A stretch of 27,890 bases of DNA, taken from assembly GCA_964347045.1 (NCBI GenBank), contig CAYFXC010000014.1:1-27890 (forward strand). The letters are read 5' to 3'. Origin of the DNA: an uncultured archaeon (GTDB taxonomy: Archaea; Asgardarchaeota; Hermodarchaeia; Hermodarchaeales; Hermodarchaeaceae). Numbering within the stretch: the stretch's first letter is position 1; the number at the start of each line of letters is the position of its first letter. Position numbers and translations under genes: made by a program. Below the pieces are notes generated by a model. That model saw nothing but the letters and a program-made list of their open reading frames with translations, made no database searches and had not been told where the DNA came from. Below are positions 215 to 16,740 of the stretch, piece after piece.

Positions 215-2113
215 ATGGAAAAAAATGTAACAACAATAGATAAAGCAGTCAAACAAGTTCGCAGGGAGATCCCTCAAGAGGCAACTACAGTTTTTGATAG
301 GTACGAGGCCCAATTGCCCTTATGCGGTTTTGGCGAATTGGGTTTGTGCTGTAATAACTGTATGCAAGGACCCTGCAAGATTGACCCCTTCGGAGAAGAA
401 CCTACCAAAGGCTCGTGCGGAGCCACGGCGGATACAATGGTTGCGAGGAACTTCGTACGATCTTTAGCCGGAGGCACAAGCGCTCATCTAGACCACGCAC
501 GCCATACACTAGAAGTCTTGGTGAAAGCGGCTAAGGGTCAGGCTCCATATTCCATTAAGGATGAAGGTAAACTCAAGGGTCTTGCTGGAAAGCTTGGAAT
601 TGACACGTCATTGCCCACGAAGGAGATGGCCCTCAAATTCGCTGAAGCAGCGGAAAAGAACTTCACAGACTTGCATGGACCACTAGCCTGGTTGACATTG
701 CATGCACCAGAAAAATGCCAGGAAACGTGGATGAATCTTGGAGTTACGCCTATGAATGGGCCCTTGGATATTGTGGAAGCGATGCATAGAACAACGATGG
801 GAGTAGATGCTGATCCCGTCAACCTCATTCTAGGAGCTATTAAGCTTTCCTTGGTCGACGGCTATGCGGGACTCCAATTAGCAACTGACCTTCAAGACAT
901 TCTGTTCGGCACTCCCCAGCCAGTAGTATCTGAAGCGAATCTTGGGGTAATCAGAGAAGATGCCATAAACATTGTAGTGCACGGTCATGTTCCGCTACTA
1001 AGTGAGAAGATAGTTGAATGGGCTGGCAAACTGGATGACACAGGTAAGAAAGCAGGAGCTAAGGCTGGCATTAATGTCGTAGGAATCTGTTGTAGTGGCA
1101 ATGAAGTACTGATGCGCCAAGGGGTGCCTTTAGCCACCAATTATCTGGGTCAAGAGTTTGTTATCGCCACAGGTGCAGTTGATCTCATTGCAGTTGATGT
1201 GCAATGCATAATGCCTTCAATTGTGGATATGGCAAAATGTTATCACACAAAAGTGATTACAACCTCGCCCATAGGCAAGATTCCGGGAGCTGATCACTTA
1301 GAGTTTTCTGAAGAGAAAGCAGATGACATTGCAAGAAACATCGTTGAGAAAGCTATTGAGAACTACGGGGACCGAGATCCAACTAGAGTAAGTATTCCGC
1401 AAGAGAAATCTGAAATGATGGGGGGCTTTTCAGCAGAGGCACTGATATCTGCACTTTCGAATCTGGATTCAAAAGATCCTCTTCAACCTTTAATCGAGAA
1501 TATAGCTAATGGTAACATTCTTGGAGTAGTCGGAATCGTTGGATGCAATAACATAAAGGTTACGCAAGACTCTCTCCATACTGCGATTGCCAAGGAGCTC
1601 ATCGAGAACAATGTCCTAGTTGTTGGTACAGGCTGTTGGGCGGTTGCCGCCGCTAAGGCAGGCCTCATGGCACCAGTAGCTACAGAACAGCATGCTGGAA
1701 ATACTCTAGCTGCAGTCCTATCAGCTATTGGAAACGCCGTAGGACTAGATAAACCCCTACCTCCGTGCCTTCACATGGGGTCATGCGTAGACAACAGTCG
1801 TATTCATCAAGTATTAGCTGCATTGGCTGACAAACTAAAAGTAAGCATCAGTGATTTACCAGTGGTAGCTTCGGCTCCTGAAGCAATGACTGAGAAAGCC
1901 CTGGCTATTGGCACTTGGGCTGTTTCGATTGGGCTACCTGTTCACTTAGGCGTAGTGCCGCCAGTCCTTGGTAGCAAGTTAGTAACAGAGCTGCTAACGA
2001 GTACAGCTGAAGACCTTCTCGGTGGGAAAGTCGTAGTGGAGCCAGATCCAAAGAAGGCTGTCCAGTTTATGATCGACCATATTAAGAAGAAGCGGCAAAA
2101 ACTGGGGATTTGA
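215..2113 (+). CDS. cooS: Anaerobic Ni,Fe-carbon monoxide dehydrogenase catalytic subunit (monofunctional CooS type)
   Basis: 632 aa. D/B-cluster motif CGFGELGLCCNNCMQGPC...GSCG, catalytic SAHLDH, C-cluster ligands HGH, GICC, DVQC, GCNN, GTGC, GSCVD, and catalytic Lys in MTEKA. Confidence 0.97.
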   Translation: MEKNVTTIDKAVKQVRREIPQEATTVFDRYEAQLPLCGFGELGLCCNNCMQGPCKIDPFGEEPTKGSCGATADTMVARNFVRSLAGGTSAHLDHARHTLEVLVKAAKGQAPYSIKDEGKLKGLAGKLGIDTSLPTKEMALKFAEAAEKNFTDLHGPLAWLTLHAPEKCQETWMNLGVTPMNGPLDIVEAMHRTTMGVDADPVNLILGAIKLSLVDGYAGLQLATDLQDILFGTPQPVVSEANLGVIREDAINIVVHGHVPLLSEKIVEWAGKLDDTGKKAGAKAGINVVGICCSGNEVLMRQGVPLATNYLGQEFVIATGAVDLIAVDVQCIMPSIVDMAKCYHTKVITTSPIGKIPGADHLEFSEEKADDIARNIVEKAIENYGDRDPTRVSIPQEKSEMMGGFSAEALISALSNLDSKDPLQPLIENIANGNILGVVGIVGCNNIKVTQDSLHTAIAKELIENNVLVVGTGCWAVAAAKAGLMAPVATEQHAGNTLAAVLSAIGNAVGLDKPLPPCLHMGSCVDNSRIHQVLAALADKLKVSISDLPVVASAPEAMTEKALAIGTWAVSIGLPVHLGVVPPVLGSKLVTELLTSTAEDLLGGKVVVEPDPKKAVQFMIDHIKKKRQKLGI

Positions 2114-2129
2114 CGGAGGGACTCAATGT

Positions 2130-2855
2130 ATGGTAGCTCGGACTATAATTGCGGACCCTGAAAAATGCCAAGCGTGCAGAATCTGTACATTCCAATGCGC
2201 TGTGACCAAGTCCGATGGGAAAACCTTACTTGCAGCCATTCAAGAGGGCGTACCACCACGAATCAGGGTCATTGGTAACGTATTGGCAATTCCGAATATC
2301 TGCAGGCATTGTGAGAGTATTTGTATCTCGAACTGTCCTGCAGAGGCGATTCGAAGAACCACCGAAGGAGTTGTACGAATTGACGATGACAAATGCATCA
2401 AGTGTCTTCTGTGTCTATCTGCTTGTCCATTTGATGTCATTAAAGTCATGGAAAATACTGTGACTAAATGCGACCTATGCTATGACAGATTAGCCGAGGG
2501 AGAGATACCCGCCTGTGTGGAAAGCTGCCCGATATCTAGGGCACTGGCATTTGAGGAACCGGGAATTATGACTAATCGAAGATTCATCCTCAAGAAAGGG
2601 TTTAAGGCTCCACCCCGTCGACATGATATGAATGTGATGGCATTAAAGATGCCTCAGCAGATTTTTGATCGAATATCAAACATTCGTAAATTAGCTAGAC
2701 CTTCCAAAGTTTCTTCTGCTACGATGAGGAAGAGAGAGGAGTTCACGCTGCCACCGATTCCTCCTGATGCTTTCGATGAACTGGAAAAAATCATTAGTAC
2801 TACTGAGGTAGCTGGAAGGATAGCTAAAGTGAAGATCTGGAAGAAGGAGGACTAA
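2130..2855 (+). CDS. cooF: CooF/DmsB-like four-[4Fe-4S] electron-transfer protein with a C-terminal HdrC-like tail
   Basis: Motifs CQACRICTFQC, CRHCESICISNCP, CIKCLLCLSACP and CDLC...PACVESCP. GGAGGG RBS at 2116-2121, 16 nt after the cooS stop. About 100 extra aa follow the last Cys motif. Confidence 0.85.
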   Translation: MVARTIIADPEKCQACRICTFQCAVTKSDGKTLLAAIQEGVPPRIRVIGNVLAIPNICRHCESICISNCPAEAIRRTTEGVVRIDDDKCIKCLLCLSACPFDVIKVMENTVTKCDLCYDRLAEGEIPACVESCPISRALAFEEPGIMTNRRFILKKGFKAPPRRHDMNVMALKMPQQIFDRISNIRKLARPSKVSSATMRKREEFTLPPIPPDAFDELEKIISTTEVAGRIAKVKIWKKED

Positions 2856-2858
2856 TCG

Positions 2859-3749
2859 ATGTCTCAGAAGTTTAGTTTGTTCCCTGGTTGCATAGTCACT
2901 GGAAGATACCCTCATTTAGAGAAAGCCTCTAGACTAGTTGCCAGTCACTTCAATATAGAACTTATTGACATGAATTCCGTCACATGTTGTCCTGAGCCCT
3001 TTAGTATGCAGAATATTAGCCCTTTAACGCATCTATCGATTGCTGCCCGAAACATTAGTGTCACTGAAGAGATGGGATTAGATATGATGGTGTTGTGTGG
3101 TGGATGTCTTAGCACCTTGTTCCATGCAAATACAGCTTTGAAGAATAGCTATCAACTAAAAAACCTAGTGAATGACGTTATTGGAGAGGCTGGTCGAAAG
3201 TATAAGGGAGTGTCGGATGTAAAACACATCTATCAAATTTTGATTGAGGATGTGGGAATCCAAAGAATAAGAGAGAGTGTGAAGAAACCTCTCCGCGAAG
3301 TGAAAGTGGCAGCTCACTATGGGTGTCACTTGATGGATATTGCATTTTCAACAACTCTTGATGAACCAAATCAACCAATGGGTTTTGAAAAATTAATAGA
3401 AGCGATCGGAGCGCAGAACGTACCTCATGACAAACAACACGTCTGTTGCGGAGGGCCTATGCGTGACATCAATGATGACATTTCCAGATCCGCTTTGGTA
3501 GGAAAACTAGATGCTCTTAATATGGCTGGTGCAGATTGTATCGCCGTTCTTTGCCCTCTTTGCTACATGCAGTTCGATTCGGGTCAGTTAGTAGAACAGA
3601 GGAAGACCGGCAAAGAGTATAACATTCCGACGTTTTACTACACAGAACTTTTGGCTTTAGCATTAGGCTATTCAGAAAAGGAAATTGGGCTTACGGAACA
3701 TAGAATCACAAAGGGCCTCGAAGAAATAACTAAGAGCATCACGGCATAA
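2859..3749 (+). CDS. hdrB: Heterodisulfide reductase subunit B family protein (two CCG domains)
   Basis: FPGC, CCPEP, AARN, CGGC, HYGCH, CCGG, CPLC..QFD..Q and IP..YY.ELL.LALG motifs. AAGGAGG RBS lies inside the end of the upstream gene, with a 3-nt gap. Confidence 0.93.
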   Translation: MSQKFSLFPGCIVTGRYPHLEKASRLVASHFNIELIDMNSVTCCPEPFSMQNISPLTHLSIAARNISVTEEMGLDMMVLCGGCLSTLFHANTALKNSYQLKNLVNDVIGEAGRKYKGVSDVKHIYQILIEDVGIQRIRESVKKPLREVKVAAHYGCHLMDIAFSTTLDEPNQPMGFEKLIEAIGAQNVPHDKQHVCCGGPMRDINDDISRSALVGKLDALNMAGADCIAVLCPLCYMQFDSGQLVEQRKTGKEYNIPTFYYTELLALALGYSEKEIGLTEHRITKGLEEITKSITA

Positions 3750-3817
3750 CACTCCTGGTGATCTATTCGTACGTGCTATCTTCCACAAGACAAGAGATGC
3801 CACAATTCTGAACACTG

Positions 3818-4130
3818 TTAGCTATTCATGAAGTAGTGCCAGATATATTCACGTGTTTTCTTTAAGCCAACCTTTTCAGCTACACCAATAGATTCATAGT
3901 TTTCGATGTTGGTGTGCCAGCCGACCTGAGAATAACCATGTGAGAGGGCATAGTCAACCGTGGCGGCGGCTGTGATAGTGGCGAGTCCGCGTCGTCGATA
4001 TTCCGGGTGCGTTCGTATGCCAATTTCACACGCACTTCCACTAACACAATCTGTCAGACTCCATGATACAACTTTGTTACCATGCAGCGTGCAGAATCCA
4101 AAACCACGTTCAAAAAAACCTGTGAATGGC
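3818..4130 (-). pseudogene. GNAT acetyltransferase, C-terminal part only (probably 5'-truncated)
   Basis: FFERGFGFC...SWSLTDCVSGSACEIGIRTHPEYRRRGLAT...VGWHT...N.ES..VAEKVG is a GNAT acetyl-CoA-binding region. The residues upstream in the called ORF (to 4213) do not look homologous. Confidence 0.6.
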
Positions 4131-4220
4131 GTCAGTATGTCTGGACTCCTGACTAGAAATTTAAGTAAATTGGACATCCTTACAAAGATTCCATGTCTTG
4201 AAACGAATCCCAAAAACTGA

Positions 4221-4556
4221 TTACAACTCTTGGAACACTACCTCGTTCAAGAGCTCTCCATCTAATTCTTTATCACTAGCCTCAATTTCATAATAGCTCA
4301 CTAGCGAATAATCGAAGACGACTCGAAATGTGTCACCACCACATTTCCTACATGGCTCTTTAGCCGAATTAGACTAAAAGAACTCTTGATTCAACTCAAA
4401 TGGAGGCTCCCACTAGAACTCCTTCAATCCCATTTCACCCAACTCCACTCTCATCGGAAATAGAGCAACTGGTTCAAAAAAGTAGTTCTAGTTTGTCTTT
4501 CCTCTGCCCGTTAGGGTAATAAACCATAAGTCACAAATGACGATAGTGGTGGGCAT
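4221..4556 (-). pseudogene. Degraded reading frame with a CxxC zinc-ribbon-like motif, interrupted by three TAG codons
   Basis: ATG 4556 to TAA 4221 is 112 codons, with TAG at 4490, 4415 and 4376. Contains EPCRKCGGDTFRVVF and an acidic tail. Confidence 0.35.
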
Positions 4557-4891
4557 AAGCAAAAACGGTTATAGCCGCCGTGCCGTTGGGCAAGGTAGGC
4601 ATGACACCAGCTAGATTCAAGAACCGACTGCACCTCGCCAAAGAAGTGAAACGGGATGCATCACTGTTCAAAATATTTTTAGACCACTGTCAATCTCACA
4701 TGGTAGATGCCTGCGTGCAGGTGTTCACGCGCATCTTCGGAAATTTTCAGCTATGTCTCAAAAATCTCAATATATAGTTCCAAAAGATTTATTTAATTAA
4801 ATTAGATTGATTCGCGGAAATCTTCCTCATGCGATTATGTGTATTTTGATCGTTGATGGGTAATTCAAGTGGAAATTGAGAGAAAAAATCA

Positions 4892-5587
4892 ATGAGTCAG
4901 CTCGAAAAGAAACAGATTCAGTTAACTACTTCCCAATTGAAAGAATTCGACGGAAAGGAAGGAAGACCGGCATATATCGCCTACAAAGGAGTAATTTATG
5001 ATGTCTCCAAGAGCCCTTTATGGAAGAAAGGGAACCATCCAGGGGCACATACCGCTGGTAATGATTTGACAATGAGTATTATGAATGCACCTCATACTGA
5101 AGAATTATTGATGAAGTTTGAAGTTGTTGGTGAACTAATTCAAGAAGGATATACTAGACAGAAATTTGTGAACAGGATACAGAAGCTTCATATGCATTCT
5201 ATGGTAGTTCACTTTTCTCTCGCATATTCGGTCATTGTGCCGCTACTGGCTTTTCTATTCTTATTGACTCGTGAAGTTTTTTTCGAATTTGCATCGTATT
5301 TCATGTTATTGCTTGGCCTATTGGCAGGACCAGTTGCAGGATTTTCTGGGATTTTCAGCTGGAAAGTTACTTATGAAAGTCGTATGACTAAAGTATTTTC
5401 ACGGAAAATATTACTTACTTTTGTGCTCGTGCTAGTCATTTTTTTAGCGTTTGTATGGCGAACATTGGATCCAAATATTCTAATAAATACAACCAGTATG
5501 AGCTTTGTTTATTTGGCTTTAAGCATAAGCCTTGTGCCTCTAAGTGTGATGCTTGGGAATTATGGAGGAAAAATAGTATTTCTCTGA
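4892..5587 (+). CDS. Cytochrome b5-like heme/steroid-binding domain fused to a 4-TM DUF2231-like membrane domain
   Basis: L.EFDGKEGRPAYIAYKG.IYDVS.S.LW..G.H...H.AG.DLT.....APH (cyt b5-like), then H.MVVHF and four hydrophobic helices ending in G.YGGKIVF. Confidence 0.85.
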   Translation: MSQLEKKQIQLTTSQLKEFDGKEGRPAYIAYKGVIYDVSKSPLWKKGNHPGAHTAGNDLTMSIMNAPHTEELLMKFEVVGELIQEGYTRQKFVNRIQKLHMHSMVVHFSLAYSVIVPLLAFLFLLTREVFFEFASYFMLLLGLLAGPVAGFSGIFSWKVTYESRMTKVFSRKILLTFVLVLVIFLAFVWRTLDPNILINTTSMSFVYLALSISLVPLSVMLGNYGGKIVFL

Positions 5588-5612: not shown

Positions 5613-6314
5613 ATGATGAAGAAAAAAAAGGGACAAGCTCGAGAGAGAGAACTTGAGGAGATAGCTGAACTTCTATCAATTGGAATTGCCCATGAAAGAG
5701 AATCCTTTAGCTTTTACCAAAAAGCATATGGAAAATGTCTAACTTCATGCGAATCGCCATCGGTTCAAAAAGCCCTTTCCGCTTTATTAGAGACAAAAAA
5801 ACATCACGAAGAAGAATTGCGAAAGCTCCTAAATACAATTAATCTCGAATTAATGAAAATACGAGCCCATACAATAGAAAAGTCTACTGTGATAAAGGCA
5901 TCACCCGAAGATGTATTTACATTTTTAACAGATCGTACAAAAGTGCCAGAATGGAACGAGTTAATTAAAGAAGCCAGGATCACTTCAAAGGAACCTATTG
6001 GGGTCGGATCAACTGTTCACTATGTTGGAGTGGCAGGGGGAACTCAAGCTGAATGGGATATTGAAACAACAGAGTGGATACCTAGCAAAAAATATGCATG
6101 GCGCACAACTTCAGGTGACGTTTCAATGATTGTAACCTGGACTCTAAGAAAAGTGGAAGCCGGTACTGAACTCACATATGAATTGCGATATGTTTTACCA
6201 TATTCAATTCTCGGAAAGATCTTAAATAAACTGAAGGTTAGCAAGGATATGAAAAAAGGGATGGCAAAGGCTTTGCAGAATCTGAAAGAACTTTTAGAAA
6301 AAAACTCCACCTAG
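5613..6314 (+). CDS. Fusion of a rubrerythrin/ferritin-like helix pair with an SRPBCC (START/CoxG-like) domain
   Basis: N-terminal LL..GI.HERESF.FY...L..L.E.KKHHE..L helix pair. C-terminal IEKSTVIKASPEDVF.FL.D....PEW...IGVGS...GTELTY...L.NLKELLE is SRPBCC. AGGTGA RBS at about 5600. Confidence 0.75.
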   Translation: MMKKKKGQARERELEEIAELLSIGIAHERESFSFYQKAYGKCLTSCESPSVQKALSALLETKKHHEEELRKLLNTINLELMKIRAHTIEKSTVIKASPEDVFTFLTDRTKVPEWNELIKEARITSKEPIGVGSTVHYVGVAGGTQAEWDIETTEWIPSKKYAWRTTSGDVSMIVTWTLRKVEAGTELTYELRYVLPYSILGKILNKLKVSKDMKKGMAKALQNLKELLEKNST

Positions 6315-15381: not shown

Positions 15382-16740
15382 ATGAAAAAAATGAAAATTT
15401 CCTCAACACTGCTGCTTGCTCTTCTTATGATACTTCCGATAACGCTGTTTACAATGACACCAACAACTTGGCTGACTAATGAACTGGCGCCGCGAGTTAG
15501 TGCACAATTTGAGCTGTGGGATAGTACATATGGTACAATTGGACGAGACGAAGCAGGTTATATGATTGAAGTGAGTTCAGGTGGATTTCTTATGGCCGGT
15601 GGCTCAGATGCTGGAACGGGTACTAATCGAGATGCTTGGTTAGTCCGGATAGATGACGACGGTAACCAACTCTGGAATCAATCGTATGCGCGAGTAGGGG
15701 GCTACGTTGAAAGGTTTTGGCACGTGGTTGAATGCAGTGATGGTGGCTTTGCAGCCACTGGTAATGCTCCTGCCGATATCTTAAGTCTCAATGATGACGT
15801 GTTGGTCCTTCGAACTGACGCGAATGGGAATCAATTATGGAATCGCACCTTTGGCGGGTCCAACTCTGAAGTTGGGTGGGGAATCGTAGAAGTCAGTGGT
15901 GGCGGCTACGCAATTATTAGCGAAACAGACCAATATGGTGCTGGTCTCGCTGATATGTGGTTAATCCGCTTAGACGCGAATGGTAATCATCTCTGGAACA
16001 AGACCTATGGTGGAAGCGGTGTTGATACTGGGTTTTCGTTAGTGGAAACGAGCGGTGGCTTTGCACTTTTTGGACGGACTGAGAGTATCGGTGCTGGTGG
16101 TTCGGATTTGTGGCTGGTTCGTGTTGATGCATCTGGTAACCACTTATGGAATCAGACATACGGTGGAACAGATCATGAATGGGGGTTACAGATTCAAGAA
16201 CTTGATAACGGGGACTTTGGACTCAGTGGTGACACGTTAAGTTTTGGTATCAACTCAGGTTCATATGAGAACGCTTTCTTTCTCCGTGTGACTGCAACTG
16301 GAACTCACCTCTGGAACCATACGTACGGTGGAACTGATACTGAGTACGCTTTTGATTTCAAAGAACTAAGTGATGGAAGCTTTGTACTCGCTGGATCCAC
16401 TCGTAGCTTCAATGTTGGTAACTATGACTTCTATGTCATGCGCACAGACGCCAATGGAAATCTGTTATGGAATCAAACCTATGGTGGAGCCGAGAACGAA
16501 TTAGGTCGTTCCGTTATAGCTCTCAGCACAGGAGGCTTCATGGTTTTCGGTCAAACAGCCACCTATGGTGCAGGACTTGAAGACTTTTGGCTTCTGAAAA
16601 TCTCTGATGGTCCAACAACGCCTACGACTCCAACTCCCACAACTACGTTCCCTATACCTGGTTTCCCCCTTAGTGCCATTGCCATTGCTCTCGTTCTCTC
16701 GCTCGGAATTGGAATCATCGCCCGACGACGAAAACGCTAA
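15382..16740 (+). CDS. Cell-surface 7-repeat beta-propeller protein with Thr/Pro linker and PGF-CTERM-like anchor
   Basis: Signal peptide, seven ~53-aa repeats (WNxTYGG...E...GGF...G...D.WL.R.D..GN.L), PTTPTTPTPTTT linker, and IPGF + TM + RRRKR. Start uncertain (15373, 15382 or 15391). Confidence 0.88.
   Translation: MKKMKISSTLLLALLMILPITLFTMTPTTWLTNELAPRVSAQFELWDSTYGTIGRDEAGYMIEVSSGGFLMAGGSDAGTGTNRDAWLVRIDDDGNQLWNQSYARVGGYVERFWHVVECSDGGFAATGNAPADILSLNDDVLVLRTDANGNQLWNRTFGGSNSEVGWGIVEVSGGGYAIISETDQYGAGLADMWLIRLDANGNHLWNKTYGGSGVDTGFSLVETSGGFALFGRTESIGAGGSDLWLVRVDASGNHLWNQTYGGTDHEWGLQIQELDNGDFGLSGDTLSFGINSGSYENAFFLRVTATGTHLWNHTYGGTDTEYAFDFKELSDGSFVLAGSTRSFNVGNYDFYVMRTDANGNLLWNQTYGGAENELGRSVIALSTGGFMVFGQTATYGAGLEDFWLLKISDGPTTPTTPTPTTTFPIPGFPLSAIAIALVLSLGIGIIARRRKR

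Follow-up and report, generated by a model that had tools for sequence, protein, structure and literature searches.

A candidate flavin-free CO:disulfide oxidoreductase encoded by a conserved cooS-cooF*-hdrB cassette in uncultured archaea

Introduction

Can electrons from carbon monoxide reach the heterodisulfide reductase (Hdr) subunit HdrB when no gene for HdrA, or for a normal HdrC, lies beside it? The question is raised by a three-gene cassette, cooS-cooF*-hdrB, at positions 215-3749 of the DNA analysed here. This DNA, hereafter the window, is 27,890 nucleotides long. It is the start of contig C14 (CAYFXC010000014.1) in the genome of an uncultured Asgard archaeon of the family Hermodarchaeaceae (GCA_964347045.1; 2.58 Mb, 89% complete). 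To our knowledge, the general view is that soluble HdrB cannot do without HdrC and in most cases needs HdrA too. A recent survey found the HdrB domain family to be consistently tied to a two-cubane HdrC-type domain (bioRxiv 10.64898/2026.08.18.745454). The cassette appears to be a natural exception to that tie.

The module is real, conserved and built from known parts, and its proposed mechanism is well constrained. In its best reading, to which we give a probability of about 0.6, it is a CO:disulfide oxidoreductase that works without flavin or bifurcation and serves to scavenge CO or to regenerate thiols. We infer the direction, the substrate and the physiology.

Results

The cassette is compact and its gene order is conserved

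The features of the cassette are as follows.

161-168, + strand: archaeal-type TATA box, TTTATATA, read from the sequence by eye; putative cassette promoter
202-208, + strand: Shine-Dalgarno-like GGGATGG 5' of cooS, a sequence reading
215-2113, + strand: cooS, 632 aa, monofunctional Ni-CO dehydrogenase (Ni-CODH; TIGR01702, 721 bits; nearest solved relative 6ELQ)
2115-2119, + strand: GGAGG ribosome binding site (RBS) of cooF*; other copies have a G/A-rich Shine-Dalgarno-like sequence at the same junction
2130-2855, + strand: cooF*, 241 aa, intact open reading frame (ORF)
2130-2534, + strand: N-terminal part of cooF*, residues 1-135; CooF/HycB-type ferredoxin with 16 Cys and four [4Fe-4S] clusters
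2535-2855, + strand: C-terminal part of cooF*; a linker of ~40 residues, then a helical arm without Cys, homologous to the C-terminus of HdrC
2652-2831, + strand: the arm itself, residues ~175-234; predicted HdrB-docking arm
2846-2850, + strand: GGAGG RBS of hdrB, within the 3' end of cooF*
2859-3749, + strand: hdrB, 296 aa, cassette-specific subfamily with both non-cubane cluster ligand sets

All three genes are intact and co-oriented, with gaps of 16 nt (cooS/cooF*) and 3 nt (cooF*/hdrB). These coordinates bear out the layout given in a preliminary description of the locus. Its claim of a separate RBS for each internal gene and a single upstream TATA region also stands, with GGAGG present twice and the TATA box at 161-168. 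The description had further stated that no hdrA, hdrC, mvhD, acsB, hydrogenase or FAD-NAD(P) oxidoreductase (FNOR) gene is adjacent. None is apparent in the ORF list of the window, for which the statement holds; elsewhere the genome does encode HdrA, HdrC and MvhD, and one related locus, L118, has hdrC-hdrB-hdrA near the cassette.

Conservation of the order had been proposed as a check, and eight further lineages have the genes in this order. In five of them the cassette is complete, and in three it is cut by contig ends or broken. With this genome included, the cassette is complete in six of nine lineages. Chance adjacency was rejected because the order is common to all nine. HdrB has seven close homologue clusters (56-80% identity), after which identity drops to 42%. 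Every one of the seven lies 3' of cooS and cooF*, as does a near-identical copy in another assembly (L129). Likewise, all 8 CooF* clusters found, together with a broken copy in L128, sit between cooS and hdrB. We rejected the L128 copy as a sign of decay: the assembly in which it is broken contains runs of N, and breaks of a similar kind appear in L129 relative to the window.

Across copies the two gaps measure 11-18 nt and -4 to 3 nt. Protein identities are 74-83% for CooS, 53-73% for CooF* and 55-78% for HdrB, and each gene is monophyletic in trees. All three genes, the CooF* tail included, are under purifying selection (pN 0.13-0.30 against a saturated pS of ~0.8). Cassette GC tracks host GC, from 0.41 to 0.54. 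The neighbours differ in every lineage, with hdr genes nearby in L118 only. At no locus is hdrA inside the operon, and no membrane, electron transfer flavoprotein (ETF) or sulfur-carrier gene travels with the cassette.

One locus (L119) matches NCBI proteins of Ca. Njordarchaeota. On single-gene evidence, the flanking genes of two others (L160 and L123) are closest to Bathyarchaeia, at 67-73% and 62-64% respectively. A search of 18 relatives within the family found no cooS. Searches for CooF* gave none in 399 genomes of the same phylum, where only HdrC tails matched, in 401 genomes of the Bathyarchaeia class (a search without positive control) or in plasmids. Named GTDB contigs held no orthologue of CooF*, cassette HdrB or cassette CooS. 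On sequence evidence, the cassette appears to be a rare, patchily distributed, laterally moved and self-contained module, present in at least nine lineages.

CooS retains the residues of an active Ni-CODH

CooS scores 721 bits against TIGR01702, where the cut-off is 478. Its best solved match is Carboxydothermus hydrogenoformans CODH-IV (6ELQ; 810 bits, against 656 for the next). We take CODH-IV to belong to Ni-CODH clade E. The following residues are invariant in the six full-length cassette copies aligned: the D- and B-cluster ligands C37, C45, C46, C49, C54 and C68, the C-cluster ligands H258, C293, C331, C444, C474 and C524, and the catalytic pair H91 and K561. The retention of all of these, claimed from the first reading of the sequence, is thereby confirmed. 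In trees, the cassette CooS proteins form one clade (support 100/100). Their sister is CooS of Desulfosporosinus and Coriobacteriaceae (84/87, in a 20-row tree without clade references). No cooC lies in the cassette. Contig C6 of the same genome carries Cdh and a gene that by eye is CooC-like.

A different outlet for CooS was seen on an archaeal-looking contig (L161:6092-11584). There, by eye, cooF-cooS is followed by NuoE/NuoF/NuoG-like (HydCBA-type) genes.

CooF* combines a CooF ferredoxin with an HdrC-like arm

The 16 Cys of CooF* residues 1-135 follow the CooF/HycB pattern. This part groups with cooS-adjacent CooF ferredoxins, both bacterial and archaeal (SH-aLRT 89). The last 106 residues contain no Cys and have no Pfam match. 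We searched the 5482 ORFs of the genome with a tail profile made from seven homologues. The best non-self match was the HdrC of contig C9 (E=7.9e-10), and this protein, from an hdrA-mvhD operon, is the closest relative of the tail. Alignment of the CooF* tail with HdrC tails by hhalign gave 96% probability (E=1.6e-9) over residues 175-234. Against 1.84 billion representatives, the tail profile returned 12 matches: 2 family members, 7 HdrC-scoring proteins and 3 short fragments that align with HdrC tails. In a Foldseek search with the tail model, the top seven matches were HdrC chains (probability 0.60-0.97; next 0.06), with E > 0.1 and with HdrC tails included in the alignment. TIGR03290, the two-[4Fe-4S] domain of HdrC, matches seven places in the genome and none on C14. 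Because the ferredoxin groups with CooF, the tail is HdrC-like and the HdrC two-cluster domain is absent, CooF* is, as judged from its sequence, a chimera of a CooF ferredoxin and an HdrC C-terminal arm.

Other searches were less informative. The tail alone, run against 5.8 billion proteins, found nothing except itself. An unseeded tail profile did not reach solved HdrC sequences; it reached them only after HdrC tails had been used as seeds, so that this result is partly circular. The monomer model of full-length CooF* was of poor quality (predicted local distance difference test, pLDDT, 58) and its fold searches matched the ferredoxin part only. The ESM Atlas yielded generic ferredoxin clusters and nothing closer.

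The arm is predicted to dock on HdrB

The modelled complex of HdrB and CooF* scored 0.84, and the best of 3 controls scored 0.00. The mark used for this score is reached by 58 of 80 solved pairs and by 2 of 110 mismatched pairs. Runs agreed in at least 81% of contacts, with a partner pLDDT of at least 78. The highest-confidence contacts are all in the HdrC-like arm, at CooF* 217-227. Other confident contacts place CooF* 61-72 and 92-102 against the HdrB surface that holds C156 and C196, ligands of the proximal cluster. From the fold of DmsB, NarH and PsrB, we take these two segments to belong to the third and fourth clusters, at the exit end. The ligands of the first cluster (C13, C16, C19 and C133) are not named in the interface; in this fold, that cluster is the docking site for catalytic subunits. 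The model therefore predicts that CooF* docks on HdrB and leaves the expected CooS-facing cluster free. The geometry fits a linear wire from CooS, to which CooF* would dock directly. Docking of HdrB with the Fe-S protein had been suggested as a check on their partnership; the arm derived from HdrC is present and the docking is predicted.

The HdrB pocket is remodelled on the CoM side

All ten Cys of HdrB (11, 43, 44, 80, 83, 156, 196, 197, 232 and 235) are present, as initially described. Together with His157 they match 5ODC chain B. In reference numbering (PMC13261682; bioRxiv 10.64898/2026.08.25.746951), His157 is His154, R16 is Arg14 and R202 is Arg201, and all are kept. In structure 5ODR, the sulfonate of coenzyme M (CoM) is held by the backbone of Gly46 and Gly198. 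Arg14, Arg201 and Arg240 bind coenzyme B (CoB), and Phe233 lines the tunnel (PMC13261682).

The CoB-binding Arg14 and Arg201 are present in every one of the seven cassette HdrBs. On the CoM side, all seven have F48 in place of Gly46, a CCGGP loop with P200 that is two residues shorter than the GAGGG loop around Gly198, and L234 in place of Phe233. Lys157 is D160 throughout; the same position is K or R in 89 of 95 other HdrBs. Arg240 is absent, at a position that also varies in Methanothermobacter marburgensis. The protein scores 283.5 bits against TIGR03288, below the cut-off of 345. In the tree, cassette HdrBs fall outside the methanogen-type CCGAGGG clade, and the host HdrB of contig C15 falls inside it. 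Neither mcrA nor comA was found in the 89% complete genome. Given the remodelled CoM side and the failure to find mcrA or comA, CoM-S-S-CoB is probably not the substrate of the cassette HdrB. The likeliest substrate would be another anionic disulfide with a CoB-like tail.

The same changes bear on an alternative in which the wire is real and HdrB acts as a relay to another carrier (ETF, quinone-linked or membrane), or as a reductase of protein disulfide, persulfide or polysulfide. EMO and DsrK use CCG domains as relays or on protein-bound sulfur, and the remodelled pocket of all seven copies, like the missing mcrA and comA, would fit such a role. However, EMO and DsrK lose ligands, whereas the cassette HdrB keeps ten Cys and His154. 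It also keeps the two CoB-binding Arg residues, and no locus supplies a membrane, ETF or sulfur-carrier partner. We regard the relay as unlikely, although it is the strongest of the alternatives.

Discussion

Proposed mechanism

In the CO:disulfide oxidoreductase that we favour, the three genes would specify one soluble, flavin-free enzyme. CO would be oxidised at the C-cluster of the CooS dimer, from which electrons would travel by way of the B- and D-clusters and enter CooF* at its first cluster. Having crossed the four CooF* clusters, they would enter HdrB, which would reduce a small-molecule disulfide, probably one with a CoB-like anionic tail and not CoM. CooF* would stand in for HdrC and for the input from HdrA/MvhD. 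The role of the enzyme would be to remove CO that poisons the host [NiFe]-hydrogenases and to regenerate thiols. The minimal non-bifurcating wire from CO to a disulfide, put forward in the preliminary description, is supported in this form; CoM-S-S-CoB, named there among the disulfides to assay, is probably not the substrate.

With potentials of -520 to -558 mV for CO and -140 to -281 mV for heterodisulfide (PMC5296606, PMC13518236 and, in part, general knowledge), we calculated by hand an energy drop of about -46 to -81 kJ/mol if the acceptor resembles CoM-S-S-CoB. A drop of this size would fix the direction towards CO oxidation. Since there is no bifurcation, it would not be conserved in this step. 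That would suit an enzyme which scavenges CO and regenerates thiols in a host whose hydrogenases are sensitive to CO.

HdrA, HdrC and hydrogenase genes elsewhere

Elsewhere in the genome are genes for three HdrA proteins, three HdrC/HdrB pairs and MvhD, as well as for Mvh-type hydrogenase and for Cdh. At C15:40841-48010 there is a methanogen-type hdrC-hdrB ... hdrA-mvhD-mvhG-mvhA cluster, at C9:19950-23985 an hdrA-mvhD fusion with hdrC-hdrB, and at C6:16635-19085 a third hdrA-mvhD; no mcrA was found in this genome. In L118, a thioredoxin reductase gene and a complete second hdrC-hdrB-hdrA set follow 3' of the cassette (L118:10266-14376). This separate set starts ~1.5 kb downstream and has its own full HdrC; the hdrC was under-called at 84 aa and an intact longer frame is present.

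These genes raise the alternative that CooF*-HdrB is a variant HdrBC that joins HdrA, or HdrA-MvhD, from elsewhere; CO would then supply electrons to a bifurcating or confurcating complex. There is a parallel in Methanosarcina acetivorans, where hdrA2 is distant from hdrB2C2 and the complex is nevertheless active, with the rate rising from 0.62 to 3.6 mol/min/mol (PMC5296606). The likeness of the tail to the HdrC of an hdrA-mvhD operon, the three host hdrA genes and the hdrA near the L118 cassette point the same way. Yet CooF* lacks the HdrC two-cluster domain that sits between HdrA and HdrB (PMC5861303). Moreover, each hdrA on C9, C15 and L118 is already paired with its own hdrC and hdrB, and the cassette moves without hdrA. 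We infer that the module is independent of HdrA encoded elsewhere, and consider the in-trans complex quite improbable.

Looser coupling can also be envisaged, in which the genes are co-regulated, electrons from CooS enter the ferredoxin pool, and CooF*-HdrB acts as a general ferredoxin:disulfide oxidoreductase and overflow valve. Ferredoxin-mediated transfer from CO to HdrBC is known in vitro (PMC5296606). Conversely, CooF* was never found without cooS, and its ferredoxin domain descends from a CooF that is dedicated to cooS and fed by the D-cluster (PMC6344411). This arrangement is, in our judgement, a little less probable again. Reverse operation, with thiols reducing CO2 to CO for the host Wood-Ljungdahl pathway, could draw on the host Cdh and the reversibility of both enzymes, yet it would be uphill by ~46-81 kJ/mol in a cassette with no flavin or membrane coupling and with a CooS closest to the CO-scavenging CODH-IV, and is very improbable.

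Several points weigh against a self-contained CO:disulfide oxidoreductase. The highest-confidence contacts of the complex model are all in the HdrC-like arm, so resemblance to solved HdrBC may account for part of its pass. In the cassette HdrB, His89 takes the place of Glu87, a residue of the proposed proton path. With three host HdrA and an hdrCBA set near the cassette in L118, in-trans partners exist. Related CCG domains can be pure electron-transfer modules, as in EMO (bioRxiv 10.64898/2026.08.18.745454). Lastly, the module is rare, with nine lineages, all of them metagenomic.

A further operon at C48:1-4405 (L345) contains two small Cys-rich genes (MetV-like by eye), hdrC, hdrB, a gene for a 2Fe-2S/4Fe-4S protein and one for a TfrA/SdhA-like flavoprotein. 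From its gene content, this candidate thiol:fumarate reductase could be a source of disulfide.

Flanks and insertion site

The cassette is bordered by fragments of an integrase gene and accompanied by a passenger.

1-141, + strand: last part of a truncated Xer-type tyrosine recombinase gene (NF040815 match, window residues 6-47)
3818-4213, - strand: GNAT acetyltransferase gene (PF12746 positions 151-241 of 243, C-terminal part only)
4554-4770, + strand: second, shorter integrase 5' copy, ~55 codons plus leader; 82% identical to the upstream copy; right boundary of the cassette

Contig C6 joins C14, and the upstream integrase copy starts ~350 nt before the window, as seen on C6 and L129. Its homology ends just past the TGLR motif, where the cooS promoter begins. 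The integrase ORF of L129 matches NF040815 with E=1.6e-12 over model positions 10-129 of 263. The cassette and the GNAT gene thus lie between two truncated 5' integrase copies of the same orientation. The GNAT gene is a passenger outside the operon; a GNAT gene also lies 3' of hdrB in L128. An SSV-type split integrase at a tRNA was rejected: both fragments are 5' parts, and L129 contains no tRNA. Binning contamination was rejected too, since cassette GC is in line with that of the flanks and the independent assembly L129 ties the cassette to genus-conserved genes.

Synteny within the genus ends at a shared motif, GCATAAGTGTTT (L129 ~1567-1578), beyond which the cargo differs per species. In L129 the integrase region is at 1598-2220, and weaker matches to the integrase leader occur in three other genomes (G011, G012 and G014). 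The sequence context suggests an insertion hotspot at this site. A 13-mer at the stop codon of hdrB, TAACACTCCTGGT (window 3747-3759), recurs just beyond the synteny break in genome G004 (L340); the genome analysed here has a single copy of it, and the match may be chance.

Further into the window, a cytochrome b5-DUF2231 gene (4892-5587) adjoins a gene that fuses a rubrerythrin-like helical domain to an SRPBCC/polyketide-cyclase domain (5613-6314). An inverted repeat pair of 81 bp, 81% identical, lies 14 kb apart at window 16654-16734 and C14:30711-30791.

Implications

Beside the known CooS-CooF outlets, hydrogenase and FNOR, the cassette would add HdrB as a terminal partner. It suggests that the C-terminal arm of HdrC can be carried over to another protein as a docking tag and connect HdrB to a different donor. 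Tentatively, and with somewhat less than even odds, we propose a stand-alone, laterally spread and flavin-free CO:disulfide oxidoreductase in which the HdrC input domain has been exchanged for CooF and HdrB is tuned to a thiol/disulfide pair of non-methanogens (Asgard, Bathyarchaeia). The Hdr of Mcr-lacking Asgard archaea is described as acting on an 'unidentified heterodisulfide' (PMC11291895). If our proposal is true, HdrB receives its electrons directly from a dehydrogenase by way of a four-cluster ferredoxin, and the three genes could be expressed to find the cofactor. A CO-driven system of three proteins, with no added ferredoxin or flavin, would then be a simple assay for the Asgard heterodisulfide in extracts or libraries.

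Comparison with known systems

The preliminary description knew of no characterised complex with this architecture, and our literature search found none. We found no description of a CooF-HdrC chimera or an HdrA-less cooS-hdrB module in the literature searched, most subscription papers being outside it. Ni-CODH surveys, in the parts available, list hdr genes near cooS as a category only (PMC6344411, PMC13240472); in the first, the category includes the HdrA, HdrC and MvhD COGs. The link between Ni-CODH and Hdr is shared with the cassette, although those parts describe neither an HdrA-less three-gene module nor the chimera. The available part of a third survey (PMC13056359) held no mention of Hdr that we could find.

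With MvhADG-HdrABC of hydrogenotrophic methanogens (5ODC/5ODR, 8RVU, 7BKB), the cassette shares the HdrB non-cubane ligand sets, His154, Arg14 and Arg201. Both also have the C-terminal arm of HdrC, and the model places the cassette arm on HdrB. Conversely, the cassette has no HdrA, flavin, MvhD or hydrogenase, and its donor would be a CO dehydrogenase. A four-cluster CooF domain replaces the two-cluster domain of HdrC, the pocket differs on its CoM side, and the search of the host genome gave no Mcr.

A precedent for CO-driven, HdrA-free HdrB chemistry exists in vitro, and by analogy it bears on the cassette. In M. acetivorans, CO, CODH/acetyl-CoA synthase, ferredoxin and HdrB2C2 without HdrA2 slowly reduce CoMS-SCoB at 0.62 mol/min/mol, about six times slower than with HdrA2 (PMC5296606). 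Like the cassette as we read it, that route is CO-dependent and HdrA-independent. However, it is a slow side route using free ferredoxin and a normal HdrC, whereas the cassette appears hard-wired by gene fusion in a dedicated operon.

Closest on the CO side are C. hydrogenoformans CODH-IV (6ELQ) and the clade-E cooS-cooF-FNOR clusters, such as that of Desulfosporosinus (L114), whose CooS and CooF are sisters of the cassette proteins in trees. Both follow the same plan, from a monofunctional CODH through CooF to a terminal reductase. In the cassette, however, the terminal module is HdrB instead of an FNOR, and CooF has gained the arm of HdrC.

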